Assembly: GCA_022711575.1 (NCBI GenBank) | Contig: JAKLES010000002.1 | Location: 1 to 49,908, forward strand | DNA length: 49,908 bases | Direction of reading: 5' to 3' | Origin: Deltaproteobacteria bacterium | GTDB taxonomy: Bacteria > Desulfobacterota > Syntrophia > Syntrophales > Smithellaceae | Shown here: positions 8,896 to 44,840 of the stretch, piece after piece | Position numbering within the stretch: the first letter of the stretch is position 1 | Layout of the letters: every line of letters begins with the position of its first letter | Notes under the pieces: model-generated | The model's database searches: none | Told to the model about the DNA's origin: nothing | Seen by the model: the letters and a program-made list of their open reading frames with translations, nothing else | Position numbers and translations under genes: made by a program

Positions 8896-8898
8896 ATC

Positions 8899-9348: not shown

Positions 9349-9433
9349 TTTCCACGAGGTCTGCTTTTAGTTCTCTAACCTGCTCACTAGGTATTACCTC
9401 TGGGGTAAAGTAAAATCTCATATCTTACTTCTA

Positions 9434-9453
9434 CTTAAGCATTTTCCATGCCA
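9434..9453 (-). promoter_or_regulatory. Sigma-54 type (-24/-12) promoter candidate for the late (virion) operon
   Basis: The minus strand reads TGGCATGGAAAATGCTTAAG. GG is at 9452-9451 and GC at 9440-9439, 10 nt apart. It is about 90 nt upstream of the first late ORF. It matches the site at 17565-17582 at 17 consecutive positions. Confidence 0.7.
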
Positions 9454-10086
9454 TCGAGTTTCTCCTTACTTCCTACTAAGCTTTCTAATTTTACTTTAAA
9501 CTACATAAAATATCTAGTTTTTAAAATTTGAATTTTATGAGAGAGAGTCATGTGTTATTCGCGTATGCGATCGCGGCCCTCTCCCCACCAGCAAGTTCAG
9601 CTCCCAGGATAATTGCTATCTACACTTCGTGGTCTAGGATCTAGCTCATATCTAGTTGTTGCAAGTCTGGGAAAGCAACTAGCAGGAAGTCTGAACTTCA
9701 AAACTTCATGGATTAGGCTTCCTGGAAGATCTGGGATTTTGCTCTCTGGGGATTGAGAGTAGTTTAATCTTAAGTAAGATACTAATATTAGTAAGGATAT
9801 AATGATTCAATAGGTGTGATCGGCAATTTCTTCCTAGCGTTTAAACTCTCTAGGATTGATTATAAGAAGCCGTGTAGCCTTCTTGCTATAACCATATTAG
9901 AAATTACTTCCGCTTTTTGTAAACTACTAACTATCAGGAACAACGGCAAAAAAAATTCTTAAATAAATACAGGCTTCCAAGCTCCTATAATTGATCCTAG
10001 AGCTTTTCTTTAACATTAAAGCTTTAGTTAGAGTTTTGTTTTAGGGGTAAAAAAGTGACTTGAGCCCTAGGCGTGTGAGTAAAATC

Positions 10087-10140
10087 AAAAAAAAATTTTT
10101 TTTAGAGATTTTTTTGTTTTGTTTATTTTTTTGTTTTTAT
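10087..10140. other. A/T tract (A9T8 palindrome followed by T-runs), possible DNA-unwinding element
   Basis: The sequence is caaaaaaaaattttttttagagatttttttgttttgtttatttttttgtttttatttg. It lies in the divergent non-coding region next to the iteron-like repeats. Confidence 0.4.
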
Positions 10141-10187
10141 TTGTATAAGATAATGTCATATGTTTTTTTGGAGCCTAAAGCAAAAAA

Positions 10188-10334
10188 GTAAATAAAGAAA
10201 AAGCAAGAGAAAACTTCAGATCCCCCCCTCGTAAGGATTGTGGGGAAGTAAAGAAAAAGCAAGGAAAAACTTTAGAAAACCTAGAAAGCAAGCTGCAAAG
10301 CAAGCATCCCCCTCGTGGAGATGATGGGGAAGTA
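10188..10334. repeat. Two imperfect tandem iteron-like repeats, each with a CCCC..GGGG hairpin core; AAGCAAG occurs 4 times
   Basis: Unit 1 (10188-10250) is gtaaataaagaaaaagcaagagaaaacttcagatccccccctcgtaaggattgtggggaagta. Unit 2 (10248-10334) has the same ends with a ~24-nt insert. AAGCAAG recurs near 10201, 10258, 10287 and 10300. Confidence 0.6.
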
Positions 10335-10380
10335 GAGTTTGGTGGAGCTATAGCTTAAGGGATTGTAAAAAATTTAGGGT

Positions 10381-10401
10381 GCGAAGCATAAAGTATGCCA
10401 A
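10381..10401 (-). promoter_or_regulatory. Sigma-54 type (-24/-12) promoter candidate firing leftward into the non-coding region
   Basis: The minus strand reads TTGGCATACTTTATGCTTCGC. GG is at 10399-10398 and GC at 10387-10386, 10 nt apart. It lies back to back with the rightward sigma-70-like promoter at 10452. Confidence 0.6.
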
Positions 10402-10451
10402 GAGAGAGGCAAAAAGTAAAATAAAGTTTAGAATATTTCACTGTTAGGGGC

Positions 10452-10479
10452 TTGACAAGAGCGGAAATGGGGTTAAAAT
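10452..10479 (+). promoter_or_regulatory. Sigma-70-like early promoter candidate
   Basis: TTGACA (10452-10457), a 16-nt spacer, then TAAAAT (10474-10479). It lies upstream of the first plus-strand genes. Confidence 0.5.
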
Positions 10480-10493
10480 AAAAGGAAAAAACC

Positions 10494-10556
10494 ATGAAAA
10501 AAATAGTATCGACAATTGAGCTACCCTGCATCGAAGGGGACATATTTAGATTCTAA
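10494..10556 (+). CDS. 20-codon leader ORF (MKKIVSTIELPCIEGDIFRF)
   Basis: The ATG is about 15 nt after the -10 box, with AAAGGA 8 nt upstream. The stop codon TAA (10554-10556) directly abuts the 5' arm of the terminator hairpin. Confidence 0.3.
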   Translation: MKKIVSTIELPCIEGDIFRF

Positions 10557-24344: not shown

Positions 24345-24548
24345 ATGGGAAAAACTTCTGCAAAATTTGGCCTCTGTGCTTGTGGTAATTCAACATCTTT
24401 GCGCAAGCGTCATGAGTGGATTTGTGAGAGATGTGACAAGTTAGAATCCAGACATTCAGATCATGGAGTAGAGGTAGTTAGGAGAATTAAACCTGATCTT
24501 AATGATTTTAGAGTAACACTTACAAACTTCCTCTCTTGTGCGAAATAA
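24345..24548 (+). CDS. Small zinc-ribbon protein
   Basis: 67 aa, with CACGNS .. CERCDK. Confidence 0.45.
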   Translation: MGKTSAKFGLCACGNSTSLRKRHEWICERCDKLESRHSDHGVEVVRRIKPDLNDFRVTLTNFLSCAK

Positions 24549-25983
24549 ACCCACAACCTCCTACTCAGGACTTACTATCCTCCTAGATAGACCCTCGCGG
24601 TTTGATAGGCAATATCTAATTTCTGCCTATGCAGGAAAAATCTTTGAAAGATTTATCTCTCCCTTAGACCGGAGGTCTATTGATATTCAAACTCTTGATA
24701 CTTTTCGAGAGTTCTATCCAGAAACTAAAGTTGTAATGTTGCTAGGAAAAGACTCCCTCGCGTTGTTTAAACAAGGAGTAACTTTACAACAACAAAGAGG
24801 CTCACCTTTTAAGATAGGTTCAAAAACTTTCCTGGCATCTTTCCCTCCTCAAGATTGTATTGATATAAAAAACTACGAAGATAGCTATTATGAAAATGAA
24901 ATCGAAGAAGACTGCACAAAAGACAGTGATGAAAAATCCACAAAAGGAGCAACCCCAAGAAGTGAATATGCTTTTTGGTTTGAGCGAGACTGCAAGAAAG
25001 CTTTGCGATACTTGCGAGAGGATCCAAAAATTATTGAGTTCAAAAAAGTTATCAACCCTCCAATTACAGACATTACACGAGCTTTGCTGGGACTACAAGG
25101 ATCTGAGTTGTTTCTTGATATCGAAACTGCGGACGACTTCAGACTCACTTGTATTGGACTTGGTTTCGACAATGTTATCTACACAATCCCAATCTCCAGA
25201 TATAGCCCACTTGAAATTACTCTTACAAGCAACCTCCAAGATACTGCAAACTTCCTCCGAGCACTTGCCGTTGCAATGGTCAGAAATTTAGTAGTAGTTC
25301 ACAATGCAATGTTTGATCTTTGGGTGCTTGCAAAATATTATAAAATCCCAGGAGGTAAGAATAACTTTGACACAATGATAGCACATCATAGGTGTTATCC
25401 AGGTGTTAGAAAATCCCTCGGGCATTGCTTGTCATTATATACTGACCAGCCATATCATAAAAACGAGGGTGTGTTTAATCCAAAAACCCCCGCACAAGAA
25501 AGGCAACTATGGGAGTATAATGCAAAAGACATTGAATCATTAATGATTTTAAAACCAGAAATCCTAAAACGCGCTAAGATACTTGGTGCTGAGAGGTCTA
25601 TTGAAATTGCTAATAGAATGATCAGACCTTATCTTACTATGACGCTCACTGGTATAGAACTTGCTGAGAACAAACTAGAAAGTGAGATAGCAAGTTTGCA
25701 AAAAGAGGATGTGCAAACTTTGAGGCTAATTAAATTGCTTGCTGGAAGCGAATTAAATCCTAATTCTCCTAAACAAATGAGAGAGTATTTGTTTGATGGA
25801 CTTGGGTATAAAGCGTTTAAGTTTTCGGAAAAAACTAAAGAAGCCTCGACAGGGATAGAAACTCTATTAAGATTACGTATTAAACATCCAGAAAACCATG
25901 TCTTAGGTTTGTGTTTAAAACGCCGAGGGATCGCAAAGAAACTTAGTATGATAGAAAGTTTGTATGCCAAAGAAACTACATAA
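24538..25983 (+). CDS. Family-A DNA polymerase, N-terminal fragment (unassigned N-domain + 3'-5' exonuclease + thumb start)
   Basis: Exo I is LFLDIETAD, Exo II is VVHNAMFDLWVL and Exo III is EYNAKDIESL. The C-terminal RRGIAKKLSMIESLY matches the K-L-x-S-T-Y region preceding the fingers. The ORF stops before the O-helix and palm motifs. The first ~110 aa loosely resemble a degenerate UDG-like fold (low confidence). Confidence 0.75.
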   Translation: MRNKPTTSYSGLTILLDRPSRFDRQYLISAYAGKIFERFISPLDRRSIDIQTLDTFREFYPETKVVMLLGKDSLALFKQGVTLQQQRGSPFKIGSKTFLASFPPQDCIDIKNYEDSYYENEIEEDCTKDSDEKSTKGATPRSEYAFWFERDCKKALRYLREDPKIIEFKKVINPPITDITRALLGLQGSELFLDIETADDFRLTCIGLGFDNVIYTIPISRYSPLEITLTSNLQDTANFLRALAVAMVRNLVVVHNAMFDLWVLAKYYKIPGGKNNFDTMIAHHRCYPGVRKSLGHCLSLYTDQPYHKNEGVFNPKTPAQERQLWEYNAKDIESLMILKPEILKRAKILGAERSIEIANRMIRPYLTMTLTGIELAENKLESEIASLQKEDVQTLRLIKLLAGSELNPNSPKQMREYLFDGLGYKAFKFSEKTKEASTGIETLLRLRIKHPENHVLGLCLKRRGIAKKLSMIESLYAKETT

Positions 25984-26089
25984 AGAACTGGTTAGGTCCG
26001 CCGCAAAAGCAGGACTTAAAGGAGCACAAAGGGATGCTTATGTTTATGGAACACTTGCAAAGATAGAAAAGAAGAAAGGAAAGAAATGA
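25964..26089 (+). CDS. Small basic protein (41 aa, below the track cutoff)
   Basis: Read by eye: MPKKLHKELVRSAAKAGLKGAQRDAYVYGTLAKIEKKKGKK. It overlaps the polymerase fragment stop, and its own stop overlaps the next ATG (ATGA at 26086). Confidence 0.35.
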   Translation: MPKKLHKELVRSAAKAGLKGAQRDAYVYGTLAKIEKKKGKK

Positions 26090-26301
26090 CCTCCGAGGAG
26101 TTTAATAAAGAAATAACAACGCTTATGGAAAAAGCTACAAAAGACCTTGGTCCTCATAAAGTAGCTAGTTGTTTGTCACAACACTTAGGAAATTACTTAT
26201 TTGCAATTAATAATCATTATGAAAACCTTAGTAAAGATCCTTCCAATAATACTGCTAACTCTAACTCTAACAGCACAAACTTCAGTGGTAAGAGTAGTTA
26301 A
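26086..26301 (+). CDS. Small protein with a Asn/Ser-rich C-terminus
   Basis: 71-aa ORF. The N-terminal 44 aa look coherent. The last ~27 aa overlap, in another frame, the signal-peptide coding region of the next gene. Confidence 0.4.
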   Translation: MTSEEFNKEITTLMEKATKDLGPHKVASCLSQHLGNYLFAINNHYENLSKDPSNNTANSNSNSTNFSGKSS

Positions 26302-26548
26302 ACTTATTTGGGATGCAAACCCTCCAGAGGAGAACATTCTTTACTATTCTGTAAAGTGGTCTTCAACATCTGGTGGACCTTACCTAACAGTTACAAATGT
26401 AACAACTACAAACGCAACAGTTATTTTAAAAGGAGGTAGGAATTTCTTCATTGTAACTGCTGTAAATAACTTTGCAGAAAGTGATCCCTCCGAGGAAGTA
26501 TATAGACACATTGCCCCAGGGCGAGTAAAGAACATAAAAGCACAATGA
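26219..26548 (+). CDS. Secreted fibronectin-type-III-like domain protein
   Basis: The signal peptide is MKTLVKILPIILLTLTLTAQT (start moved to the internal Met at 26219). KLIWDANPPEENILYYSVKWS..YLTVTNVTTTNATV..FFIVTAVNNFAESDPSEEV has an FN3-like strand pattern. Confidence 0.55.
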   Translation: MKTLVKILPIILLTLTLTAQTSVVRVVKLIWDANPPEENILYYSVKWSSTSGGPYLTVTNVTTTNATVILKGGRNFFIVTAVNNFAESDPSEEVYRHIAPGRVKNIKAQ

Positions 26549-27999
26549 AAATCCTCCTCATCAATCCATTCTATACTTCTAACTGTTCTACTAGATGGTA
26601 TCCTCCTGAGCCTCTTGGCTTATTATATCTCCGAGAATCTATAAGAGCTATTTATGGATCTAAAGTAACTGTCAAAATCCTCGATGCTCAGACAGAAGGT
26701 GGAGAAGAAATAAAAAGGACACCTAGTGGATATAGAAATGGAATGATTGATGGGGAGATTTTAGATTTCCTAGATAGCTATAAACCAGACATTGTTGGAA
26801 TTACCAACAACTACACATTTGGTGTAAAAGATGCAGTTGAAATTGCAAAACTTGTAAAACATTTTGGTAATCCTGTTGTTATCCTCGGAGGAGCTAATGC
26901 CACAATGGACCATGAGAGGCTTATAAAACTTCCCTGGTTTGATTATGTTGCTAGAGGCGAGGGAGAAGATTTGTTTGTTGAGTTTGTAAAAGGTTTTATT
27001 GATGGAGGAGTTGAAGATATTCTTGGGCTTACTACAAAAAACAAAATAAATCCTCCTAGAACATGTTTAGTTGATCTAAGTAAACTTCCAATCCCACGTA
27101 GAGATGAAATCCCTTTTGATTTGTATTCTAAATATTCAAAATATCCAATGTGCCCAAAGCAACGTCCAACTGCAACAATATCTTCTAGTAGAGGTTGTCC
27201 TTTTAGATGCACCTTCTGTTCTACTCAAGCTGTTTGGGGGAATAATTGGCGAGGGATGAGTGTAGAGAGGATGTTAAAAGAAGTAAGTTACTTACACAGC
27301 TTAAGAGTTAGAGAAGTTTATTTCTATGATGATCAACTTCTCAGAGATAAACTTAGAATTGAAGAATTTTGCCTCAAGTCTATTGAGTATTTTTCTGACA
27401 TGACATACTCTACCCCGGGAACTTCTCCTATGTTGATGTCTGAGGAACTTCTTGAACTTATGTCCCTCGCAGGATTTTATCGCTTGTGCTTTAGTGTTGA
27501 CGTAGGGACTGTGAAAGTTGCAAAACTAGTAAAGAAACCTGTGAAGCTTGAAAAAGTCCGAGGACTTGTAAAGAAAGCAAACACTCTTGGTATGTGGACT
27601 TGGGGAACATTTGTGATGGGATTCCCTCAGGAAACAAAAGAGGACATAAAGGAAATGATAACCTATGCTTCCTCGCTGGGATTTGATTTTGTAAACTTTT
27701 TTATGTTACAACTACATAAAGGGAGTGAGATATATAACAACCTAATAAGAAGCGGAGTTATTAAAGATGACTTGCATGGGTCAAATAGTATGGATTATCC
27801 TCTCTGTCCCTCGGAGCATTTATCCCAACAAGAGCTAATTGCTTTGCATAAAGAGGCTGAGAAAACATTTTATAAACAAGTAGCAAGGAGAGTTTTTAGC
27901 TCAAGTTTTATAAAAGAACTATGGCCAAAAATCAACACGTGGACAAAATTTAAATATGGAGTAAAACTATTATGGAATCTAATAAAGATGAAAATATAA
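26545..27999 (+). CDS. Radical SAM enzyme with N-terminal B12-binding-like domain (class B type)
   Basis: The CxxxCxxC cluster is SSSRGCPFRCTFCS. The N-terminal Rossmann-like region is KILLINPF..PPEPLGLLYL..DIVGITNNYT..VVILGGANAT, as in cobalamin-dependent radical SAM proteins. Length is 484 aa. Confidence 0.75.
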   Translation: MKILLINPFYTSNCSTRWYPPEPLGLLYLRESIRAIYGSKVTVKILDAQTEGGEEIKRTPSGYRNGMIDGEILDFLDSYKPDIVGITNNYTFGVKDAVEIAKLVKHFGNPVVILGGANATMDHERLIKLPWFDYVARGEGEDLFVEFVKGFIDGGVEDILGLTTKNKINPPRTCLVDLSKLPIPRRDEIPFDLYSKYSKYPMCPKQRPTATISSSRGCPFRCTFCSTQAVWGNNWRGMSVERMLKEVSYLHSLRVREVYFYDDQLLRDKLRIEEFCLKSIEYFSDMTYSTPGTSPMLMSEELLELMSLAGFYRLCFSVDVGTVKVAKLVKKPVKLEKVRGLVKKANTLGMWTWGTFVMGFPQETKEDIKEMITYASSLGFDFVNFFMLQLHKGSEIYNNLIRSGVIKDDLHGSNSMDYPLCPSEHLSQQELIALHKEAEKTFYKQVARRVFSSSFIKELWPKINTWTKFKYGVKLLWNLIKMKI

Positions 28000-28226
28000 G
28001 ATGCTTTCAATGCTCCAACATTGGCGTGACGATGGATGAGAACATCCGGCTTGAAGAAAAAACCAATATTGATGGCTCAAAATACTGGTGCGCCAAGCAG
28101 GACATCGGAACATTGTTTGGTTCTAAGGTCCACGGTGAATGCTCTGGAATAGGGAGGACTAAAGAGCAAGCTTTGGAGAGATTAAAAGAAGATATTAAAA
28201 AACTTGGAGAAAGCTTGTGGTATTAA
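27972..28226 (+). CDS. Hypothetical protein
   Basis: 84-aa ORF overlapping the radical SAM 3' end. An internal Met at 28032 is an alternative start. Confidence 0.4.
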   Translation: MESNKDENIRCFQCSNIGVTMDENIRLEEKTNIDGSKYWCAKQDIGTLFGSKVHGECSGIGRTKEQALERLKEDIKKLGESLWY

Positions 28227-28252
28227 TATGGAGTAAAATTATTAGCTAAGAG

Positions 28253-29248
28253 ATGAAAACCACCACCACCTACTCAATCGCTGGTCCTGATACATTTAGA
28301 CTAGCTTCTAGGAAGTGTCCAGATGGTTCAGGAACAAACATGCAAAATTGGGATAAGGATGTTAGGTCTCTAGTTATTCCCTCCGAGGGAAAGATCCTAG
28401 GCCAATCTGATCAGTCTGGAGCAGAAGCTAAGATTGTAGCATATCTGTGTCGGAAAGGAAACTTCAGAGCATTGTTTGATAACAACATAAAACCTCATGT
28501 TTATGTTGCAATGCAGTTGTTTCAAGAGAAGTGGAAATCTTATTGCGAGGGAGTTTCTAGGCTTTGCTGTTTAAAAATCCAAGACTTAAAACAAGATCCA
28601 GAATTCAAACCTCTGGAGAAACTAATTAAAGAGTCTGACAACTGGCCTCCTAGTAAGCGTTATTACTACATGGCAAAGCAAGTATGTCATGAGACAAATT
28701 ACAAAATAGGCAAAAATGAATTTGTCTCAAACACATTAAAGAAATCCGAGGGAGCAATTGTTTTAAAACCAGAAACAGCACAAGAGTTTTTAGACTTTTA
28801 CTATAAGTTATTCCCTGAAATTCTTGAATGGCATAGAGCAATTGAGAACCAAGTCCGAACAACAATGTTGTTGAAAAATTTGTTTGGACACCCTCGTAAG
28901 TTTACTGGACTTTTCCGTCCTGACTTGCTTAAAAAAGCCCTCGCATTTATTCCACAATCCACTATTGGAATGATTACAAATATTGCAATAGTAGAATTGC
29001 AAGAACGAATAGATAATGGAGAACTCCCTGGACTTGACTTGCTACAAAATGGTCATGATAGTATTTTGTGGCAATGTTATATTGGGGATGAAAAAGACAT
29101 GGCTGTTGAGGTAGCTAAACATCTAAACAGAAAACTTCTGTCTCCTCGCGGGGAACCATTTTCTATGTCTAGTGAAGTTGCTGTTGGATATAATTGGAAA
29201 CCCGCTAGTGAGAAAAACCCAGAAGGACTAAAAGAAATTATACTATGA
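28253..29248 (+). CDS. Family-A DNA polymerase, C-terminal fragment (fingers / palm)
   Basis: TFRLASR..GTNMQNW corresponds to TGRLSS..PNLQNIP. Motif A is ILGQSDQSGAEAKIVAYL (D-x-S-x-x-E). Motif B is YYMAKQVCHETNYKIG (K..N-Y-G). Motif C is LLQNGHDSILWQC (H-D-E/S). Confidence 0.75.
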   Translation: MKTTTTYSIAGPDTFRLASRKCPDGSGTNMQNWDKDVRSLVIPSEGKILGQSDQSGAEAKIVAYLCRKGNFRALFDNNIKPHVYVAMQLFQEKWKSYCEGVSRLCCLKIQDLKQDPEFKPLEKLIKESDNWPPSKRYYYMAKQVCHETNYKIGKNEFVSNTLKKSEGAIVLKPETAQEFLDFYYKLFPEILEWHRAIENQVRTTMLLKNLFGHPRKFTGLFRPDLLKKALAFIPQSTIGMITNIAIVELQERIDNGELPGLDLLQNGHDSILWQCYIGDEKDMAVEVAKHLNRKLLSPRGEPFSMSSEVAVGYNWKPASEKNPEGLKEIIL

Positions 29249-30459
29249 CCAACCTTGAACACTGGAGAAACTACCTCCGGGACTTGGAATCCCCACTTCC
29301 TCTTATTGATTGGCCTTTATACTTTGCAGTTGCAGCATCTCTTGAAAGACGTGTTTGGTTTGGATCTTCAAAAGGTTTTGAGATATTTCCAAACATTTAT
29401 GTTATTGTTGTAGGAGGACCATCAGTAGGAAAGTCCCTCCCAATGTCAAGAGCAGTAAGTATGTTGGAAAAACTCCAAGCAGTAAAAGGAGGAACATTGC
29501 AAAGTGCTTTAACCATTGCACCTGACAGTGTTACTCTTGAGAGGCTTACACAAATTCTTGCTTCTTGTGGAGATAGTAAGATTTTAAAAAATCCAGATGG
29601 CACAATCAAAAGAATCCCACATAGTTCTATCTCTATTGCCTCCGAGGATCTAGCAGTTTTGTTTCGTAAAAACACTGAGGATCTTGTGAGATTTTTTGTT
29701 CAAGGATATGATGCTCGTAACTATAGAAGGGAAACCAAAAACCAAGGAAAGGATCTAATTACAAATATTTGCATTTCCTTTTACGGTTGCACACAGCCAG
29801 AATTTATCTCCTCCCAAGACGCCTCTTTAATAATTGGACAAGGCTTTGGTTCGAGAGTTATATTTCTATGGGGAGAAGATAAAAGATTTCGAAAAGCCAA
29901 GATAGAAATAGATAAAGAACAAGAGCAAGACTACGAGGCAGTTAAAGCACATTTACAAAAACTTACAGAACTTTGTGGAGAAGTTAAGTTTTCTTCTGAG
30001 GCAGAAGAATTCTTTGTTTATTGGTATGAAAAAGACTTCGATAGAACAGTAGTAAATTCAAATAAAAAACTTGAAGCCTACTATGGGAGGAAAAAACTCC
30101 ATGTTAGAAAACTTGCAATGATCTTACATTTCTTAGATAATTTTGAGTTTGAGGTTCAAAAATCCTCCGTAGAAAAAGCTCTAAAACTTCTCTGTAGTGC
30201 AGAAATCGAAATGCACAAAGCATTATGTGCAACTTCTAAAAATGTCCTCGCAACAATCTCAGAAAAAATCCTAGAATGCCTAGCAAAAAATGGCCGAGAA
30301 ATGTCTATAAAAAGAATCCGCCTAGCCATGTTTGACCAAGCGGATGTTGAACAGCAAGATAAGTGTTTGGAATTCTTAAAACAAACCGGGCAGATAAAAA
30401 TTATCGAGTCAAAGATTCTACTGCTCGGGGAGCAACATAACGAGTCCGGAACTTCTTAG
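29245..30459 (+). CDS. P-loop NTPase (possible replicative helicase or primase-associated ATPase)
   Basis: 404 aa with Walker A VIVVGGPSVGKS. It is the last gene of the replication arm. Its 3' end overlaps the convergent 1519-aa gene by 59 nt. Confidence 0.5.
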   Translation: MTNLEHWRNYLRDLESPLPLIDWPLYFAVAASLERRVWFGSSKGFEIFPNIYVIVVGGPSVGKSLPMSRAVSMLEKLQAVKGGTLQSALTIAPDSVTLERLTQILASCGDSKILKNPDGTIKRIPHSSISIASEDLAVLFRKNTEDLVRFFVQGYDARNYRRETKNQGKDLITNICISFYGCTQPEFISSQDASLIIGQGFGSRVIFLWGEDKRFRKAKIEIDKEQEQDYEAVKAHLQKLTELCGEVKFSSEAEEFFVYWYEKDFDRTVVNSNKKLEAYYGRKKLHVRKLAMILHFLDNFEFEVQKSSVEKALKLLCSAEIEMHKALCATSKNVLATISEKILECLAKNGREMSIKRIRLAMFDQADVEQQDKCLEFLKQTGQIKIIESKILLLGEQHNESGTS

Positions 30460-33400
30460 ATTCAATAGCATTGCTATAAGCTTTATTTAGCCTGTCTAGC
30501 ATTTCTGGATTAGTTTTTCCTAGATAGTTTGTAAGTCTCCTATACTCAAGCGTATCTCTTGCTGGGCCTGGGACATTTTCCATCTTCATTAGGTTTTCAT
30601 AACCTTTTGCTTTTTGCTGTATATCTTTAGACTCTCTCTCAACTTTCTCAATCATCGCATCAAGAAGTTCTCCAGCAGTTTTTAAATCCCCTCTCTCCAA
30701 AGCTTCCCTTACACGTTTTGGAAATATACTACCTGGAACCATTGGGGAGCGAGTAATTTTTTCTCCAGTAGTTAGGTTAAAATCTCTAATTGCCTGGTCT
30801 AGTTGCTCTCGCCTAATTCTTTCTTCATTTAAAAATTCTGGAAAACTAGGTGCCCATTGCCTCCGAAGATAATTAAGTGTTTGCATATTCTGAGGGCCAA
30901 CATTTCCAAGATATTCTTTTGCAACCTCCAGAGGAGGAACTCCCTCAAAAAGATCCTGCATAGCCCTAACACTATCTCCAGCAATATTACCATAGATTTG
31001 AACATGAGGAATATTTATCCCTTGCAATCTCTGCTTTGTAGCTACGTCTATAATAGCTTTTGTGGCATCTCCTGCGATGCCTCCAATTCCTCCCACAGCA
31101 AAATAAGCTAGGAGGGTTTTTGACAAGGCAGCAACTTTAGTAGGATCATTAAGTGTGTTATTTACCTTTTCCTCTAATGTGTCTCCCTCTGAGCTTTGGA
31201 AAATACTAGTAATTGTAGGAAGTCCAGTAAAGTTTTTTCTAAACATTAAACTTCTAACAGTAGCAGCAGCTCCTCCTCCTAGAATTCCAAGAGCTAAAAT
31301 CTTTGGAACTTCTGAAACTCCCCTAGACTTAATAACATCTAATGTGTCTTGAGTTTGAGCTATTGCCCATTTAGCAAGCACGAGAAAATTTGCTCTAAGT
31401 CCTCCGTGTTTTAACATCCACTTAGGTTGTCCTGTTGGGCCATAATCTCCTTGAACAGACTTAAACAATCTATAAAGTGCAAGCTTGTCTTCTTCTGGAG
31501 TTAACTTTTCTACATTATTAACTCCAAGTTCTTTCATAAACTTTTGTGACCAGCTATCTCCTGCGAGGGCTTTTGCTTTTTGTGAAGCATATAGAAGTTT
31601 TGCAGCAGAATAATTATATGTTCTACCTGCATATTCCATAAACTCAGAAAAAGACAATTTACCAATCATCTTTGTTGTATTGTAAATAAGTTCATTTACA
31701 TCAACAGATGCTATTGATAAGTCTTTTAGATTTTTAATCCCAGCATCTTTAAGCATTACTTTTGCACTTCGGAGGATTGGACTTTTCTTAATAAATCCAG
31801 CTTTTGCAGCCTCTCTAAAATCCTCAAACACTCTGCCAGTTAAAGCGCTGTCAATAACATCTTTAAGATGACTTCCAACAAAACTCAATGGTGCTCGTTT
31901 GTAGAATAAAAATGGACCAGTAACAAGATTCCCTGCTCCTGTTCCAATTTGCAGCATTATTGACTTAGCTATTCCCCTAGCCCCTCGGTCTAGCCAATCG
32001 TCTTGAAAATTAACATTCGCAATATATTCAAGAATTGGTTTTAAGTCTGAGGTATTTGACAAGTCTTTTACAAGTTCTCCATTCTCCCAGGTAGTCCTAA
32101 CATCTTGTTTTGGATTCCAGGGATCTTTAAGCAGTCCTACAATATTTCTTGCCTTAGGATCACTTTCAACTAAGTCAAAGAAATTTCTATCCGCAGCCCA
32201 TCTCCTAGAAAATCTCTCAAAAGCCCGGTCAAAATTAGGCTCTGCAAATTCAATAGGAATTCCATCCCCCTCGGGTTTTCTTGTAGGACCATACCGGAGG
32301 TTTTGAACAGTCTTACCTAGATTTCCAGCAGCAGAGTATTTTTCAACAATAGCTTTTCTTACAACATTCTCATCAACATCTGGATGGTTTTGTTTTGTAA
32401 ACTCTACAAGTTTATTTAAAATCTGTTCTGCCTCTGGACTAGATGGATAATCTCGGAGGGTCTTAGCCACACTTGCCTCCATAGGCAAAGGATAATAAAA
32501 TGGATCTATCCCAGCCTCTCTAGCAACTCCATTATCTATCACAGGTTGCTTTGCGGCTATGCGGTCTTCTTGAAGTTTTCTTAAAATAGTCCTAATCTCA
32601 TTATATGCTTTAAGCATTTTTGGAGTGAAATCTGTCTTAGGCAAATATGCTTGTTTTAGCCTTTCATTTTGAAAATGCCTGTGGAGTTTCATCATGTCAG
32701 AAAAACTCCCTGCTTTGTGGATAGTATCTTTAAGTCTGTTTGCTATCCCCTCTCCGTCAAGCTCAGTTTTCTCTATAAGCTTTGTAATCCTAGGAGCAAT
32801 ATACTGACCCTCTCTGCCATGCTCAGGTTTTTTTAAAGCTTCTGTAGAAACAGTAAACCCAGGAAGTGCTCTTGCTCTAGGCTTATCTCCAAGAGCAGGA
32901 GCTTCAATCTCATCTAAGGCTTTTGGCTGCTTTGCAATTACATTAAGTTTGCTATCTATCTCATCAACATTCTCAACAACCTCATCAAGAACTTTCCTAG
33001 ATAATGCTTTCTTGTAGTCATTAACTGAAGCATCACCAAATCTGGCTTTTAGTCCTGCATAAATATCCTCCGCGAAAGCCTTTGTGCGAGGAAACCACGA
33101 ACCTACTTTTGAACGCAGCTCTAGGATCTTTGCTACTCTCTCTCCAACAAGTTGGATAAGTTTCTCATTAGCATCGTCTCCTCCCAGGGAAGCTTCCATC
33201 TTAGCAACAAAGTCAGGATCTTTAGCCCTCATGCGCTCAGTTACTAAGTGTCCTACTTCATGTGGAAGCGTGTCACTTGTGGCAGCCTGGGGATTGTAAT
33301 CTATCTCCTCTGTAGCAGTTTGAACCCTGCCTCTGAAGTCCTCCCCTGGAGTAATGTTGACCTTCTTTACTCCATGCTGACCTGCAAGGCCAAGCTCTTG

Positions 33401-34960
33401 GGTTGTAAGAGGACGTTCTACTGGAGTTGGTGAAACATCTCCAACCACATCAATTGGTTGTCTTTTTTGGGAAGCTTTTATTATATTAGGATAACGATCT
33501 GGATAAGTTCTCAAAAGGTGTAGAGCATAGTTTACAGCACCTTGCCTAACTTTATCTGCTCTTATCGTTTTTACCTCTGGATAAACACTAGAAAATTTCT
33601 CAAGGTAGCTCAGGAAATACAAATCATTTTGTTGCGAGAGTCTCCCAGGTGTATAACCTTCGTTTCTTCCATAGACTTTTTCTGCATGTTCTAACCAATC
33701 TTTTGCAGCATCATAAGCAAATTGTTCTTCGGCTTCTTTTTGTTTAGCAGAGATTCTACTGTAAAGTGTCTTCCCCTCCTGAGCAAGTTCGGCAGAACTT
33801 TTAAGCTCTGTGCTAGGTTTGTCTTGGTAAACTTCTGGAAGTTTCTCAATATCAGGTTTAAAACTAGGATCAGCAGGAGGACTTTTATCTGGCAAAAATA
33901 CAGGCTTTGCTCCCTCGCCAGTTTCAATATTAGCTTTAGCTTCTTCTGGAGGCTTAGGAACCCCAATAGGCTCCTCATAACCGTAAAGTCTTTTAAGCCT
34001 CTGGAATTCTGCTTCCATATGGCCTTCAAATTCTGGCTCAGAAGCTTTTTGCTTTATAGCTTCCTCTGCACTAATTGGAGCCATAGCTTTTTTCCTAACA
34101 CTTGCTTCTTTCTTGCTAGGAGGAGTTAATTCAAGTTCTCGAAGTTTCTTATAATCTGGTATAATCTCTCCTCGTTTTCCTTCAGTAGGTTTAAATTCTA
34201 GTTTTCCACTAGCAGCCTTCTCGTAAGTTTTAACAACCTCTTTAGGACTAGGTTTTTCTACTACCTCCGGAGCAGTAATTTTCTGCTCTGTGGGTTGGAA
34301 CATTTTATTTATACCCTTACTTATAAATGGAACTCGTTTAGTCCATCCGCGAGGGTCATTAAAAGGAATTCCTCCTAATGCTGCAATGCCAACTCTGGAG
34401 GGATCAACTTTTCCCTCAGAAGCAACCTCTGCTCCTGTTTCAACTCCAGCACTAACAGCAGACCCAGTAGCAACTGCTTTTAATGCAGACTTTTCTGCGG
34501 TAGTTAAAGCTGGTCTTAGTGCTTTTGGAGCACCAGAAAACAAAAGTTTCTTACTTGCTTCTAAAGCCCTCATTGTAGTAGGGCCAGACATTTTTAATGT
34601 AGGTAAGTTTCCTGCAATACTTCCAGCTAAAGCCGCTTTTGGATTTTGTGCCCTGCCTTGCTCAGAAGCTTTTTGAATACTTTCTGGGAGTGACTTTCTA
34701 AACAAATAATCATAGCCAAAACCTAAACCCATACTTGCTAATACTGCCCAGCCTACGGGAGTTCCAGCAGAAACTAACGCAGCCCCAGTTCCTAAAGCTC
34801 CAACAGATGCAGGAATAGATAATGCCGTCTCCCTAACCCCAGTAACAATAGGATTCTCAGTAACGGTAGGACTTTTATTGTCATCTACTCCTTTTATTTT
34901 AGGAGGAGACAAAGAAGGATCTTCTGGTTTATCTAGCTCCTTAAACATCAACTTACTCAT
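30401..34960 (-). CDS. Giant virion-associated protein (putative internal / ejection protein) with Gly/Ala-rich TM-like segments and an HExxH motif
   Basis: At 1519 aa it is the last gene of the late arm. The N-terminal hydrophobic stretch is GALGTGAALVSAGTPVGWAVLASMGLGFG, and the zincin-like motif is TLPHEVGHLVTE. Size and position resemble podovirus internal core proteins. Confidence 0.55.
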   Translation of the reverse strand: MSKLMFKELDKPEDPSLSPPKIKGVDDNKSPTVTENPIVTGVRETALSIPASVGALGTGAALVSAGTPVGWAVLASMGLGFGYDYLFRKSLPESIQKASEQGRAQNPKAALAGSIAGNLPTLKMSGPTTMRALEASKKLLFSGAPKALRPALTTAEKSALKAVATGSAVSAGVETGAEVASEGKVDPSRVGIAALGGIPFNDPRGWTKRVPFISKGINKMFQPTEQKITAPEVVEKPSPKEVVKTYEKAASGKLEFKPTEGKRGEIIPDYKKLRELELTPPSKKEASVRKKAMAPISAEEAIKQKASEPEFEGHMEAEFQRLKRLYGYEEPIGVPKPPEEAKANIETGEGAKPVFLPDKSPPADPSFKPDIEKLPEVYQDKPSTELKSSAELAQEGKTLYSRISAKQKEAEEQFAYDAAKDWLEHAEKVYGRNEGYTPGRLSQQNDLYFLSYLEKFSSVYPEVKTIRADKVRQGAVNYALHLLRTYPDRYPNIIKASQKRQPIDVVGDVSPTPVERPLTTQELGLAGQHGVKKVNITPGEDFRGRVQTATEEIDYNPQAATSDTLPHEVGHLVTERMRAKDPDFVAKMEASLGGDDANEKLIQLVGERVAKILELRSKVGSWFPRTKAFAEDIYAGLKARFGDASVNDYKKALSRKVLDEVVENVDEIDSKLNVIAKQPKALDEIEAPALGDKPRARALPGFTVSTEALKKPEHGREGQYIAPRITKLIEKTELDGEGIANRLKDTIHKAGSFSDMMKLHRHFQNERLKQAYLPKTDFTPKMLKAYNEIRTILRKLQEDRIAAKQPVIDNGVAREAGIDPFYYPLPMEASVAKTLRDYPSSPEAEQILNKLVEFTKQNHPDVDENVVRKAIVEKYSAAGNLGKTVQNLRYGPTRKPEGDGIPIEFAEPNFDRAFERFSRRWAADRNFFDLVESDPKARNIVGLLKDPWNPKQDVRTTWENGELVKDLSNTSDLKPILEYIANVNFQDDWLDRGARGIAKSIMLQIGTGAGNLVTGPFLFYKRAPLSFVGSHLKDVIDSALTGRVFEDFREAAKAGFIKKSPILRSAKVMLKDAGIKNLKDLSIASVDVNELIYNTTKMIGKLSFSEFMEYAGRTYNYSAAKLLYASQKAKALAGDSWSQKFMKELGVNNVEKLTPEEDKLALYRLFKSVQGDYGPTGQPKWMLKHGGLRANFLVLAKWAIAQTQDTLDVIKSRGVSEVPKILALGILGGGAAATVRSLMFRKNFTGLPTITSIFQSSEGDTLEEKVNNTLNDPTKVAALSKTLLAYFAVGGIGGIAGDATKAIIDVATKQRLQGINIPHVQIYGNIAGDSVRAMQDLFEGVPPLEVAKEYLGNVGPQNMQTLNYLRRQWAPSFPEFLNEERIRREQLDQAIRDFNLTTGEKITRSPMVPGSIFPKRVREALERGDLKTAGELLDAMIEKVERESKDIQQKAKGYENLMKMENVPGPARDTLEYRRLTNYLGKTNPEMLDRLNKAYSNAIESKKFRTRYVAPRAVESLTR

Positions 34961-40565: not shown

Positions 40566-43500
40566 TCACAAAAGATTTTGAGGTTCGGTTACAAACTCGG
40601 CTTCAACCAAAATAGGAGAAAGTAATGTTTCACTTTTCTCTGCAACTCTCATCCATAAAGGACCAACTCCCCCCTCGTCAATCTGCTCACCTAGTGCTGC
40701 CGCAGCAAAAGCCGCAGGCTCTACTCCAGATCCAGAAATACCTGTTCGTAAACAACGAAATACATAGCGACTTCTAGCAGATTGTATATAATCTCCGTAA
40801 GTATAATCTGTGTTTTTTGTCCAATAACCTGCTCCAACCTCAGCAACAATCCAAGAAGCAGTCCCGTCTGTTACTGTTTCCCCAATAACAGCGTTTGCAA
40901 TACTTGCAGGTTCTGAACTTGCTGTTGTTCCAGCAGTTGTGCAAACTAACAACTTCGTTCTGTCTGAACTTACTGCTCCATCAGCAAGAAGATAACCAGT
41001 AGAGTCGTTGCGAATTGCAGGAAGAACCCTCTCAATCAACCAAGTAACAGTTCCATCAGTCTCAGAAGTTCCCTGTGCAGCAGTTGCAATCGCAGCAGGC
41101 TCGCTAGAATTAGAAACTCCAGCAGTTGTGCATTTTAAAACTCTTGTCTCGCAGGCAGATAGTGCTCTTGAACCAACAGGATAATAAACTGAATTTACTC
41201 TGTCGAAAGGAGCAATCTTGTTTCCAGTTTCCCAAACAGGGTCAATAGAGACAAGTGTCCAAGCAACGGTGTTATCCCCAACAGGATGTGTAAGTAGTTC
41301 AGCAGTTCCTAGTAACGGAGGAACTGTTCCCGCTGTGACTCCTCCGGAGGAAGTGTAATAGATCCTAGTGATACCTCCATAAGTATAGCGTAGAAATGTT
41401 CTAGGATAAACAGTAAGTGCGTTGCTCCAGGTAATTCCTGCACAATAATGTCCTCCGCGTTCAGCATCAGAATGTAGAGCAATTCTTACTGTTCCTTCTT
41501 GTGGCCAAGTTACAGACAAGTCAGTTTCTATAAACCCATCACTTATTAGCTTTGCAAGATCTGTAAATGTCCAACTACTGTCAGTAGAACCAGAGGGACG
41601 TTGAACTGCCGCAGGCAACATTCTCAAATGCCAAGAAGTTGCTGCGATAAAATTCTGTCTATCAAACCCATCTCTCCTAGCAATTCTCATATAACCAGAA
41701 GCCCACCCCCATCCTGCAACTTGTTTTGCATCCTGAAACATCACGTGTTGAGAAAGAACTAAATTTCTAAGCCTCTTAAAAGGCACATAAGGACTGTCTG
41801 GAGATAATACTACTGGATAATCTAAACCTCCGAAATCCCTAGGATAGAGAATTGCAAGGCTTTTGTTTCTTGAGGCAAGCTCAAAAGAATTAGGACGAAC
41901 TCTACCACCATAAAGGTAGAAAGACTCATTGTCACTCTCATTGCTTTCTGCCCAATAGACTTTAAAATTCTTAACTTCTATGTAAGTTTCATAATCTGCA
42001 AATCCATAACCTGCTTCAATATCAGGAGTTAGTGAAGTCCAGACTGGAGGAGTTCCTATTGGATACATATTAGTATTATCTGTGTAGTTATTCCAAGCAA
42101 AGAAAAACCTATCTCCCTCTCCGAGGGAAAATGCCATAGGAATAGCAACACGCATTCCACCATAAGGAGCAGCAGTAGCACCTTGCAACGGGGGACAGTG
42201 CAGATCCTTCATCCAAATAATCTGATTCCACCGATTCATAATTCCAAACACAAGCTGTTTTGTGGACCTCCACAATCTATCTACTTGTCCTTGAATTCGC
42301 AAGTCGTCAACAATTGCCTGGACTTCAAAACAAACCATAATCTTATGATTTGTTCCACTTACAGAAGGATGAATTGGGTAGGTTATTTTATGATACCTAG
42401 CAACCTCGCCACTTCCAGTAAAGATAAACCTTATCCCATTTTCAATCTGAGTATATCTTCCTACTGCATTGCTAAGAACTGACCAGTTGTTTATGTCATT
42501 CATCCCAGTTGCTACATTTGTGAGACGAATACAAATCCACTCGATATGATTATCAGTAATAATATCACCAAGTGCAGCAGAGGCAAAAGCAGCTGGCTCA
42601 GAACTTCCGCAAAGCCCATCAGGATTAAGATGTTGATAAACTTGAAACACCCTCCCGGAGGAAGCTATAACTTGCGAATTTAGTGCGTTATAAGAATTTG
42701 GAACATAACTAGCATAATAAGCATAATAGGGTTGCCCAAAAAGCGGGATTGCGTATCCATACTTTCCACTAAATATCTCATAACCTGTGCGCGGAAACTC
42801 TTTCCCATTAATAGTCACAGTATCATACTCTGTAACAGTTTCCTTCCCACAAACAACAGCTCGCCAGTCGAGAGTTCCATTGATTACAAGTTTCCCGAGA
42901 AACTCATGACTAACCCAAATATGTGAACCCTGCACTCCAGGTTCAGCAGTAGATCCATAACGATTATTGTCTCGTAGATTTAACCCATCAATAACAACTT
43001 TTGTTTGTGGAAACCCGGCGTGAATAAGAATTGCAGTAGTTGCAGGTCCAACAATAGTAAGACCAGTGATAGATATTCCATTTGTTCCTGGGTTTAACCA
43101 AAGTTGTGGATGATTTCCTGGGTGCCATCCAAAAGTTCTCCTCTGCCACATAGGGAGAGAGGTAAGTGTTCTGTATGGGATGTCTGCAAATGTTCCCCAT
43201 CCCCAATTAACATGAGTATTTATTGAGATGTTTGCGAGGTTACAAAACTTGTTTGCAGAGATGTGAATAGGTTGACATGCAGAGTCAATAATAATATTAG
43301 TTAAATCCATCCAAGTAGAAACACTCCACAATCCCTCGTAAACTCCCCAGGTAACTAGGTTTGAAGCTACAAAACCATCAACATTTCCAAGCAACAAACT
43401 ACAACCCTCCCTTATTCTATGCTCAATAGGAGAGTCGTAGAGATAATTAAAGGTCTTTGCTGTTGTGAAATCAGGATAGGGATATTTATATGCCATTATC

Positions 43501-44840
43501 CCAGTGTCAAAATACATTGAAATATTATGCCAGAAGCTTTCAAGTCCTGAAAATATTAAAACAATGCTTCTGTGAATAGACATAATATGAATATTGGAAA
43601 CATAATTAAGTCCAATACCATTAGAAGTTCCTCGGATACCTACATAGCAATTATACAATGCAACATTAAATAAAGAAGTTGCAAATCCTAATAAGATTGC
43701 TGGAGCACAAACATACAAAATTGTTTTGCTTCTGGAAGTGTCATACTGATCACGATAAAACACGGAAAGATTCCCTGCACTACATCCAGGTCCAGCAAGA
43801 ACAATACAACTGCGTCTTACATAAGACTTGTTAGTAGTTCCATCAAGATTTGAACTTATCCTAGCTGTAAATAATGTATGTTCATAATCCGCGGAGGGAT
43901 CATGTTCATCGTCATCAATAAGTCCAGAACCTCCTGCTTGGCCTAGATAACAATTCTGAGCACAAGAATTGTCTAAAATCCAATCAAGCACAGTTCCTTT
44001 TACAAGTTCTGTGTAATTTGTTGGACTATCTGTTTTACCAGCGCAAGGGGCTTGAAATTGATTTCCTTGCAGATGCGCTCCAGACAAAACAAACACAGAA
44101 CGATTTAAAATTCCATGAGAAGCAGGAACAAAAATAATAGAAGACCTATTAGTTCTTCCATAAGCTGTTAGACAAGCTTCTTGGATTGCAATCCAATCAA
44201 TTTGATCTGTAATTGCAATAGCTCCAAGAGCGGAAGTAGTATAATAACTGTGGGTTAAAGGATATGCTGCTTGAATCTCAGTAAGACTTGCAAACCTCTC
44301 GCTAAGAGGGTGTTCATTTCCATCTCCAATATATCCATAAAGCCTAACGTCGATAACTTGATCCGCAGTCGCGAGGGACTGAACAGGCAACACCCCTTGG
44401 GATCTAAGTCTTGCAGCTTCAGTATCTAGGTTTGTATCTTCTGTGAATCTTGTTTGATCTATTGTTACTGTGAAGTTTTCTTGCAAGTATAAATTTACAA
44501 GCCTTTCAATTTCTGAAGCATTCGTAATCCTCCAATGAGTTCCACTAAGCTGTATATCATCAGAAGCAGTTGACTCATCCCAAACATAAGTTAGAACTTC
44601 TGTAGGTTGAGAGGCTCCATCAACTTTAATGCGTTTCCAAATATAATTATAGTATTTCGCCCCTGTAGGGATGTCAGGAACACTAGCTGTGCCGCTCCAA
44701 GTATCAGTAGAGACTACAATGATTCCTCGGGAAGCCCCGGGAGTAGCTGCATCAACAAGTTGATTTAACTCAGAAGCATTAAATCGTTGCCTTCCAGTAA
44801 AATCAACACCTTTTCTTAAGTCTTGTGCTGAGATAGTCAT
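40566..44840 (-). CDS. Tailspike / fibre protein with a pectate-lyase-like beta-helix and C-terminal repeat domains
   Basis: 1424 aa. RLYGYIGDGNEHPL..IQEACLTAY..IIFVPASHGILNRSVFVLSGAHLQGN resembles the start of glycosidase / tailspike beta-helices. The C-terminus carries repeated C-x-T-A-G-x-S-x-S-E-P-A..G..DG...W modules. Confidence 0.65.
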   Translation of the reverse strand: MTISAQDLRKGVDFTGRQRFNASELNQLVDAATPGASRGIIVVSTDTWSGTASVPDIPTGAKYYNYIWKRIKVDGASQPTEVLTYVWDESTASDDIQLSGTHWRITNASEIERLVNLYLQENFTVTIDQTRFTEDTNLDTEAARLRSQGVLPVQSLATADQVIDVRLYGYIGDGNEHPLSERFASLTEIQAAYPLTHSYYTTSALGAIAITDQIDWIAIQEACLTAYGRTNRSSIIFVPASHGILNRSVFVLSGAHLQGNQFQAPCAGKTDSPTNYTELVKGTVLDWILDNSCAQNCYLGQAGGSGLIDDDEHDPSADYEHTLFTARISSNLDGTTNKSYVRRSCIVLAGPGCSAGNLSVFYRDQYDTSRSKTILYVCAPAILLGFATSLFNVALYNCYVGIRGTSNGIGLNYVSNIHIMSIHRSIVLIFSGLESFWHNISMYFDTGIMAYKYPYPDFTTAKTFNYLYDSPIEHRIREGCSLLLGNVDGFVASNLVTWGVYEGLWSVSTWMDLTNIIIDSACQPIHISANKFCNLANISINTHVNWGWGTFADIPYRTLTSLPMWQRRTFGWHPGNHPQLWLNPGTNGISITGLTIVGPATTAILIHAGFPQTKVVIDGLNLRDNNRYGSTAEPGVQGSHIWVSHEFLGKLVINGTLDWRAVVCGKETVTEYDTVTINGKEFPRTGYEIFSGKYGYAIPLFGQPYYAYYASYVPNSYNALNSQVIASSGRVFQVYQHLNPDGLCGSSEPAAFASAALGDIITDNHIEWICIRLTNVATGMNDINNWSVLSNAVGRYTQIENGIRFIFTGSGEVARYHKITYPIHPSVSGTNHKIMVCFEVQAIVDDLRIQGQVDRLWRSTKQLVFGIMNRWNQIIWMKDLHCPPLQGATAAPYGGMRVAIPMAFSLGEGDRFFFAWNNYTDNTNMYPIGTPPVWTSLTPDIEAGYGFADYETYIEVKNFKVYWAESNESDNESFYLYGGRVRPNSFELASRNKSLAILYPRDFGGLDYPVVLSPDSPYVPFKRLRNLVLSQHVMFQDAKQVAGWGWASGYMRIARRDGFDRQNFIAATSWHLRMLPAAVQRPSGSTDSSWTFTDLAKLISDGFIETDLSVTWPQEGTVRIALHSDAERGGHYCAGITWSNALTVYPRTFLRYTYGGITRIYYTSSGGVTAGTVPPLLGTAELLTHPVGDNTVAWTLVSIDPVWETGNKIAPFDRVNSVYYPVGSRALSACETRVLKCTTAGVSNSSEPAAIATAAQGTSETDGTVTWLIERVLPAIRNDSTGYLLADGAVSSDRTKLLVCTTAGTTASSEPASIANAVIGETVTDGTASWIVAEVGAGYWTKNTDYTYGDYIQSARSRYVFRCLRTGISGSGVEPAAFAAAALGEQIDEGGVGPLWMRVAEKSETLLSPILVEAEFVTEPQNLL
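40650..41135 (-). repeat. Three tandem ~50-60-aa repeat modules in the tailspike C-terminus
   Basis: The modules are KCTTAGVSNSSEPAAIATAAQGTSETDGTVTWLI, VCTTAGTTASSEPASIANAVIGETVTDGTASWIV and FRCLRTGISGSGVEPAAFAAAALGEQIDEGGVGPLWM. The DNA echo ccagcagttgtgca appears near 40930 and 41112. A fourth, diverged copy (GLCGSSEPAAFASAALGDIITDNHIEWICI) lies mid-protein. Confidence 0.6.

Follow-up and report, generated by a model that had tools for sequence, protein, structure and literature searches.

In positions 1 to 49,908 of contig JAKLES010000002.1 (hereafter, the window), DNA of an uncultured phage, the replication region raises the question of how a family-A DNA polymerase is made when its gene lies in two same-strand open reading frames (ORFs) with other genes between them. 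The upstream ORF encodes the N-terminal part of the protein (N) and the downstream ORF the C-terminal part (C). Is this one enzyme in two chains, a gene whose halves are rejoined during expression, or the remnant of a gene that was recently destroyed? Our analysis indicates that the replicative polymerase is likely built from two separately translated polypeptides, that the fission of its gene is old, and that the junction has since become a hotspot of gene gain and loss.

The original prediction, made from the letters of the window, held that the two ORFs are jointly complete, with Exo I, II and III on the first and motifs A, B and C on the second, and the comparisons with databases and structures bear this out. 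N comprises an alpha/beta N-terminal domain (residues ~1-110), the 3'-5' exonuclease with Exo I-III, the first polymerase-domain helices and the thumb, and matches Pfam DNA_pol_A_exo1 (2e-7) together with positions 6-91 of the DNA_pol_A profile. C comprises a palm strand, motif 2 (TFRLAS), motif A (DQSGAE), the fingers with motif B (AKQVCHETNY), and motif C (HDS), and matches DNA_pol_A up to profile position 379 (6e-13). On the PHROG profile phrog_17 (DNA polymerase) the halves are consecutive and do not overlap, N covering positions 566-949 (1e-27) and C positions 972-1242 (9e-26); their concatenation gives a single unbroken alignment with Taq Pol I over the junction (query 367-571 to Taq 443-647). 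The split layout was recovered in independent assemblies from NCBI, ENA, JGI and Logan and is therefore not an assembly artefact, and it goes far beyond what chance would give.

The residues expected of an active family-A enzyme are likewise distributed over the two halves. In an alignment of 41 sequences (the window and 40 uninterrupted homologues), Exo I D194/E196, Exo II N256/D260, Exo III Y327/D331, motif A D534/E539, motif B K623/Y631 and motif C H749/D750 are all invariant; the motif A pair aligns to Taq D610/E615 and the motif C pair to Taq H784/D785. The exonuclease signatures DxE, NxxxD and YxxxD and the polymerase signatures DxxxxE and KxxxxxxY are thus all present, and only motif C deviates: at 29054-29062 it reads HDS in place of the canonical HDE (Taq H784-D785-E786), which is a family-wide property of split and uninterrupted members alike. 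Motif B (28670-28702), AKQxCHxxNYG in split and uninterrupted members, contains an invariant His that we take to occupy the position of E. coli F762 and Taq F667.

The position of the break was located by alignment and by modeling. At the junction, ...YAKETT / MKTTTTYSIAGPDTFRLAS stands opposite Taq ...LIHPRT / GRLHTRFNQTATATGRLSS, so that the break corresponds to Taq T557/G558 (counted back from D610 in the alignment). An AlphaFold2 (AF2) model of the artificial N+C concatenation, computed with 40 uninterrupted homologues as alignment input, reached a predicted local distance difference test score (pLDDT) of 88.9 and a predicted template modeling score (pTM) of 0.88. At E~1e-24, Foldseek matched the model to the Pol I structures of E. 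coli, Bst and Taq; the target-normalised template modeling (TM) scores were 0.79-0.84. A single-sequence AF2 run of the same concatenation gave a pLDDT of 33 and was discarded. In the accepted model a helix (454-476) is followed by a loop (477-482) and by strands (483-489), and the break, between residues 481 and 482, falls within the loop. A check against Pol I structures had been proposed for exactly this feature, and the model supports a position in a loop; the domain assignment was not confirmed. Taken together, the Taq alignment and the model place the break at the thumb/palm boundary rather than between thumb and fingers, in a predicted loop that links the final helix of the thumb to the palm strand before motif 2, upstream of motif A.

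The same division recurs widely among relatives. A search with C returned 364 homologues, and the best 120 of these were all stand-alone proteins of 290-377 amino acids (aa) with 42-52% identity, many of them on contigs of ~50-55 kb. The split is common to at least 120 protein clusters, whose stand-alone C fragments share the same starting motif; nearly all of the 40 C-homologue N-termini inspected consist of M plus a few residues, followed by (P)R(N/D)(S/T)T..GT.TFR. Searching with N recovered proteins of two kinds: uninterrupted ones of ~790-840 aa (<=46% identity) and N pieces standing alone (482-522 aa), the majority of which terminate just after ..KF.PWK. Scanning IMG/VR with a single-protein query yielded one locus, and with an alignment query 225 loci; split status was analyzed in 80 IMG/VR loci by tblastn and frame-walking. 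About 60 of the 80 carry an uninterrupted gene with the junction region ...KFPPWKGDRITTSYNLAGTTSYRLAS..., which supplies the intact relatives that the original prediction had suggested looking for. These uninterrupted genes encode ~800 aa at 40-47% identity. Another 15-17 loci are split at exactly the window's point. The breakpoints of the split relatives agree to within about one residue, and the residues flanking the break are as conserved as in the uninterrupted relatives.

What lies within the break, by contrast, varies from locus to locus. The gaps of the split loci measure 135-2013 nt, and in L041/L042 nothing is inserted, the N stop and the C start overlapping as ATGA. Gap cargo in relatives includes DUF7831 (6 loci), an ATP-dependent DNA ligase (L071), QSregVF_b and fn3. 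The gap of L081 holds an HNH endonuclease (phrog_374, 7e-53) and a DNA methyltransferase (7e-45), and that of L080 a weak HNH match (1.6e-6); the HNH proteins were recognized by PHROGs and went unrecognized by Pfam at E<=0.01-1. In the window the gap is 2269 bp long and contains five plus-strand ORFs of 41, 71, 115, 484 and 84 aa, in agreement with the five originally counted. Since the same break occurs with variable cargo or none, from an ATGA overlap to a gap of ~2 kb, the five ORFs are cargo and not the cause of the split, and the proposal that a 2.27-kb insertion divided the gene has to be given up. The same applies to the similarity of the residues at the break (KETT versus KTTTT), which had been read as the trace of a gene cut and re-capped. 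As a candidate target-site duplication it was rejected: the underlying DNA differs (AAAGAAACTACA versus AAAACCACCACC), and the relatives end in ..PWK(x)n and start with M(P)RNTT, without any echo.

Selection on the halves was assessed by the ratio of nonsynonymous to synonymous substitution rates (dN/dS; Nei-Gojobori method). The comparison used genomes that are ~95% identical to the window and come from other samples: on the C side L002/L003, and on the N side L087/L088. The ratio is 0.07-0.08 for N and 0.106 for C, which points to purifying selection on both halves, neither of them decaying. For the 484-aa gap gene, encoding a cobalamin-binding radical S-adenosylmethionine enzyme (rSAM), it is 0.10-0.14. 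The aligned blocks of the 41-, 71- and 115-aa ORFs contain very few substitutions as well as indels, and their ratios were not relied on.

These values bear directly on the idea that a mobile multi-gene cassette recently disrupted an intact gene and left one or both halves as decaying pseudogenes. It is true that 2.27 kb of unrelated genes lie inside an essential gene and that the 84-aa gene was gained or lost at this very place in the recent past. We nonetheless judge such a disruption highly improbable: at least 120 divergent clusters have the same break, as do ~15 IMG/VR loci whose gaps hold different cargo or nothing, the catalytic residues are all intact, and the insert does not differ from its flanks in G+C content (0.37). 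Decay of one fragment, named in the original prediction as the outcome that would speak against it, is contradicted by these residues and by the dN/dS of 0.07-0.11 in both halves. N and C each possess a start and a stop codon, selection on the two of them is purifying, and the split has been kept within a lineage; an enzyme of two polypeptides, as originally suggested, remains the best reading.

A single polymerase could also arise if a group I/II intron, a split intein or ribosomal bypassing brought the halves together once the gene had been transcribed or translated. Introns and inteins are frequent in phage polymerase genes, and members of this family bear intein-type insertions elsewhere in the protein (L001, in its C fragment, and P0190; see below). 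At the break itself, however, such elements were sought in vain. Rfam returned no family over the whole window at the gathering threshold and, in 25800-28400 at E<=5, nothing but one chance-level match to an unrelated small RNA (E=2.8). Neither Pfam nor PHROG detected a Hint/intein domain in N or C; polymerase sequence reaches directly to the end of N and resumes directly at the start of C, without Hint blocks or an added domain. The earlier statement that intron signatures and intein junctions are absent stands on both counts. The position of the C-fragment ATG is moreover fixed in the 40 N-termini inspected, the rSAM gene in the gap is a selected protein-coding gene, and a gap of this length is well out of reach of ribosomal bypassing. 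The stop is TAA and the three downstream frames all soon hit stops, which led us to reject stop-codon reassignment or read-through as a candidate. Given the lack of Rfam and Hint signals, the TAA with its downstream stops, and the selected rSAM gene, splicing, protein trans-splicing, read-through and bypassing all appear very unlikely.

We therefore return to two separately translated chains, for which the following course can be proposed. From N to the DUF3987 primase gene the ORFs form a same-strand run with overlapping or abutting stops and starts, and terminator-like sites are no commoner than in shuffled sequence; from this we infer co-transcription as an operon in the order N, 41 aa, 71 aa, fn3-like, rSAM, 84 aa, C, primase. 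The halves would be translated independently, N giving the N-terminal domain, the proofreading exonuclease and the thumb, and C giving the palm, which holds motifs 2, A and C, and the fingers, which hold motif B. They would then associate non-covalently into a Klenow-like fold, presumably an active enzyme. The fission would have taken place long ago in a short loop at the thumb base, in a form common to a large clade of uncultured phages, and the space between the halves would later have become a hotspot for the gain and loss of accessory genes. The polymerase-primase gene order is retained in relatives and in distant cultured phages.

Alternatively, the halves might form no stable enzyme, C acting alone as a thumb-less distributive polymerase and N as a free exonuclease or DNA-binding factor. 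Other phages (LUZ24-like part I/part II; T7-like cyanophage clade B) divide the enzyme at the exonuclease/polymerase boundary, so the two functions can sit on separate chains, and C alone holds motifs 2, A, B and C. The window's break, however, lies inside the polymerase domain, so that N retains the thumb and the first helices of that domain (DNA_pol_A 6-91); the residues on either side of it are conserved to the degree seen in uninterrupted relatives, and the concatenation is confidently predicted as one Klenow-like fold. Independent action of the halves seems improbable on these grounds.

In a neighbour-joining tree of the whole protein, all loci split at the thumb/palm point, the window included, form one clade. 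Several points weigh against an assembled two-chain enzyme inherited through a single old fission. The N-only and C-only trees place the window unstably, and in the C-only tree it groups with deep uninterrupted lineages; a single fission common to the window and the main clade is therefore parsimonious and not proven. The C start has a poor Shine-Dalgarno context, with TAAGAG directly abutting the ATG. HDS stands in place of HDE in motif C, a change that may bear on catalysis. The AF2 model of an artificial concatenation speaks for compatibility of the fold, not for assembly, and the binding of N to C and the activity of the complex are matters that we infer.

Half-by-half comparison adds a further complication. 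The N half of the window is nearest to uninterrupted homologues (maximum identity 46%, versus 40% for split ones), and the C half is nearest to split homologues (maximum 53%, versus 47.5% for uninterrupted ones); recombination at the junction, or unequal rates of evolution, could explain these opposite affinities. Convergence of the window and the main split clade on the same permissive loop would fit the position of the N half, as well as the half-protein trees, which do not robustly join the window to other split lineages. Fission in this part of the gene is also recurrent, a second breakpoint before motif A having appeared independently in L075, P0159, P0169 and the cultured phage MEP401. 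Against an independent split stand the single clade of the whole-protein tree, the closest C homologues, all of which are split (the best 120 of 364), and the coincidence of the breakpoints to within about one residue, and we consider it unlikely. The more parsimonious reading is one old fission, with cargo gained and lost repeatedly afterwards.

The second breakpoint deserves description in its own right. It is found just before motif A (...VIVP(A/D) and a stop, then M..DQSGAE) in L075 (9000-9200), P0159 and P0169, in an otherwise uninterrupted clade. With breaks on both sides of the motif-2 segment, the family tolerates fission at either side.

As a tentative extension of the shared old fission, the thumb/palm break may be a long-lived, clade-wide landing pad in an essential replicase gene, at which accessory genes (B12 radical SAM, DNA ligase, methyltransferase, HNH endonuclease, DUF7831) are acquired, exchanged and co-expressed, and at which the polymerase halves themselves are possibly reshuffled between lineages by recombination. 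Such recombination would account for an N half near uninterrupted forms and a C half near split forms. If so, the clade would use its polymerase junction to trade accessory genes.

Table 1. Coordinates and properties of the polymerase halves, the genes and repeats between them, and the adjoining primase gene in the window.
Feature	Position	Strand	Properties
PolA N-fragment	24538..25983	+	481 aa, GTG start, TAA stop; ends ...SMIESLYAKETT then TAA
41-aa ORF	25964..26089	+	overlaps N-fragment stop by 20 nt; also called in L087/L088
71-aa ORF	26086..26301	+	ATGA overlap with 41-aa ORF; Asn/Ser-rich tail; also called in L087/L088
fn3-like small protein	26201..26548	+	115 aa from TTG; Pfam fn3 0.0056 (below curated cutoff), phrog_31 4.6e-5
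Cobalamin-binding (class B) radical SAM enzyme (rSAM)	26545..27999	+	484 aa; Pfam Radical_SAM 1e-20, B12-binding 1e-11
Direct repeat copy 1	27953..27972		20 nt (AATATGGAGTAAAACTATTA); near left edge of 255-bp indel; family D3
84-aa ORF	27972..28226	+	on 255-bp segment 27998-28252
Direct repeat copy 2	28225..28244		20 nt; directly 3' of 84-aa ORF; family D3; copies 19/20 (95%) identical
PolA C-fragment	28253..29248	+	331 aa, ATG start; begins MKTTTTYSIAGPDTFRLAS
DUF3987 primase/helicase-like gene	29245..30459	+	ATGA overlap with C-fragment stop; Pfam DUF3987 2e-17, phrog_14296 (DNA primase) 2e-29

The contents of the window's gap are summarized in Table 1. For the 41-aa and 71-aa ORFs, Pfam, PHROG and NCBIfam searches gave no family match. 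The fn3-like ORF has an in-frame ATG at 26219, followed by a hydrophobic, signal-peptide-like N-terminus, and an ORF with a weak fn3 match also lies within the gap of L004-L006. The best NCBIfam match of the rSAM is the Sden_1168-family P-methyltransferase, at 169 bits against a cutoff of 575, and tblastn found no homologue of it in GenBank phages. One rSAM homologue (43% identity) is encoded in a cellular sugar/polysaccharide biosynthesis cluster (L091), and another on a different phage-like contig of ~51 kb (L090), not near a polymerase. By its domain content, the rSAM is a predicted enzyme and, in our reading, accessory cargo. No nuclease family was matched among the five gap ORFs in Pfam, PHROG and NCBIfam, and a homing endonuclease was accordingly not recognized in the window's gap.

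A difference from close relatives is seen at the right end of the gap. The ~95% identical genomes keep N, the 41-aa, 71-aa, fn3-like and rSAM genes and C, and do not have the 84-aa ORF: the 255-bp segment that carries it is missing from L002/L003, in which the rSAM stop overlaps the C-fragment ATG. The 84-aa product, for which tblastn gave no match in GenBank phages, has similarly small homologues in 57 representative clusters at E<=1e-3 and, on this evidence, belongs to a real small-protein family. The presence and absence of the segment in such close genomes show that the gap is still active in gene gain and loss, the 84-aa gene having been gained or lost very recently.

Selfish elements were encountered at other positions of the polymerase family. 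In L001, a relative with 51% identity that is also split at the thumb/palm site, the C fragment is 620 aa long (8654-10516) and contains an intein-like insertion of ~320 aa in motif B, starting after QVCH with CVDEQ and ending with ITGN before SANYG. The insertion matches PHROG profiles of intein-bearing PhoH, ribonucleotide reductase (RNR) and ThyA proteins, which is indirect evidence for an intein, and Pfam calls no intein in it (E<=0.01-1). The N-type homologue P0190 (804 aa) has a Pfam Intein_splicing match (292-564, 3e-16) with an HNH_3 endonuclease inside its exonuclease region. With the predicted intein of P0190, this polymerase family has a selfish element of a second kind.

Three further observations concern the N-terminal domain and the wider window. 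Residues 1-110 of the N-fragment (24538-24870) form a conserved alpha/beta domain ahead of the exonuclease, in which R21, D23, G30 and G33 are nearly invariant; a distant N homologue, P0192, has a Pfam UDG match (PF03167) within the same protein, which suggests that this domain may be uracil-DNA-glycosylase-like. The opposite strand carries very large ORFs (1424-2442 aa) downstream of the replication module (window 30401-34960 and 40566-44840; L004 12733-20061), and the large ORF of L004/L005 contains ART-PolyVal and DUF3990 domains. Most ORFs of the window's structural region have no PHROG match, an indication that this phage group is poorly represented among cultured phages.

Split phage PolA has been documented before; what is new is the breakpoint, at the thumb/palm boundary, and its occurrence in a large clade of uncultured phages. 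We found no biochemical study of any split family-A polymerase in the literature, although such genes are annotated in several phage groups. The clade described here offers a natural, strongly conserved fission point at the thumb base, with uninterrupted relatives at 40-47% identity as built-in controls, and opens to test the assembly of a two-chain Pol I, the effect of fission on processivity and fidelity, and cut sites for engineered split polymerases. With its variable cargo, the junction also illustrates clearly how an insertion hotspot can lie inside an essential gene. Annotators should treat the two ORFs as subunits of one polymerase, and not as a pseudogene or an intron-containing gene.

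Among the known systems, LUZ24-like Pseudomonas phages carry a 171-aa exonuclease ORF (DNA polymerase part I) and a 546-aa ORF (part II), with ~2.1 kb and about ten small ORFs in the gap (PMC3890496). They resemble the window in having a family-A polymerase in two same-strand ORFs with genes in the gap (PMC3890496); their break, however, separates the exonuclease from the whole polymerase domain, whereas that of the window lies inside the polymerase domain, after the thumb, and phage searches detected no sequence relationship between the two polymerases. In T7-like cyanophages of clade B (S-TIP37-like), a two-ORF PolA is clade-wide and used as a lineage character (PMC12695635). There the exonuclease alone occupies a separate ORF, a break at a domain boundary, in contrast to the one inside the polymerase domain of the window.

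Closer in layout are the OM43 phages MEP401 and MEP402, which, like most related metagenomic genomes, have a split PolA with one small ORF between the parts; the authors left undecided whether the interruption is an intron (PMC10580990). As in the window, the N-side ORF holds the exonuclease and the start of the polymerase domain, the C-side ORF holds the remainder, and the two are separated by intervening coding sequence. In our translation of OP830906 (L089 6111-8221), the MEP401 break follows motif 2 (..TGRLSSSSPNLQN..) and falls immediately ahead of motif A, ~45 residues farther downstream than in the window, and one small ORF intervenes there as against five in the window.

Genes in pieces of other kinds form another group for comparison. 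The nrdA gene of phage Aeh1 is split by mobE, so that an essential gene in pieces yields a functional multi-chain enzyme (PMC3045599, PMC2988022). That split was caused by a free-standing homing endonuclease, of which none was detected in the window's gap, and HNH genes do occur in the gaps of L081 and L080. Fractured genes with split inteins likewise consist of two ORFs with intervening DNA, whose products are rejoined by protein trans-splicing (PMC2677866); they bear split-intein halves at the break, whereas the window's break is without intein sequence.

An experimental precedent comes from family B, in a replicative polymerase that is likewise split within a clade. According to the review that summarizes the work of Petrov et al. 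2010 (PMC2988022), the split PolB halves 43A and 43B of the T4-related Aeromonas phage 25 co-purify and polymerize DNA. As described there (PMC2988022), the gap between 43A and 43B is an untranslated spacer in phage 44RR and holds a homing endonuclease gene in phage 25. The spacer-only gap of 44RR implies, as far as that account goes, that the 43A/43B split may also predate the inserted gene. The reviewed system belongs to another polymerase family and another phage group, and its assembly was shown by experiment, whereas the two-chain assembly of the window's family-A polymerase is predicted from its genes. By analogy, 43A/43B may serve as a precedent for the predicted two-chain replicative polymerase of the window.

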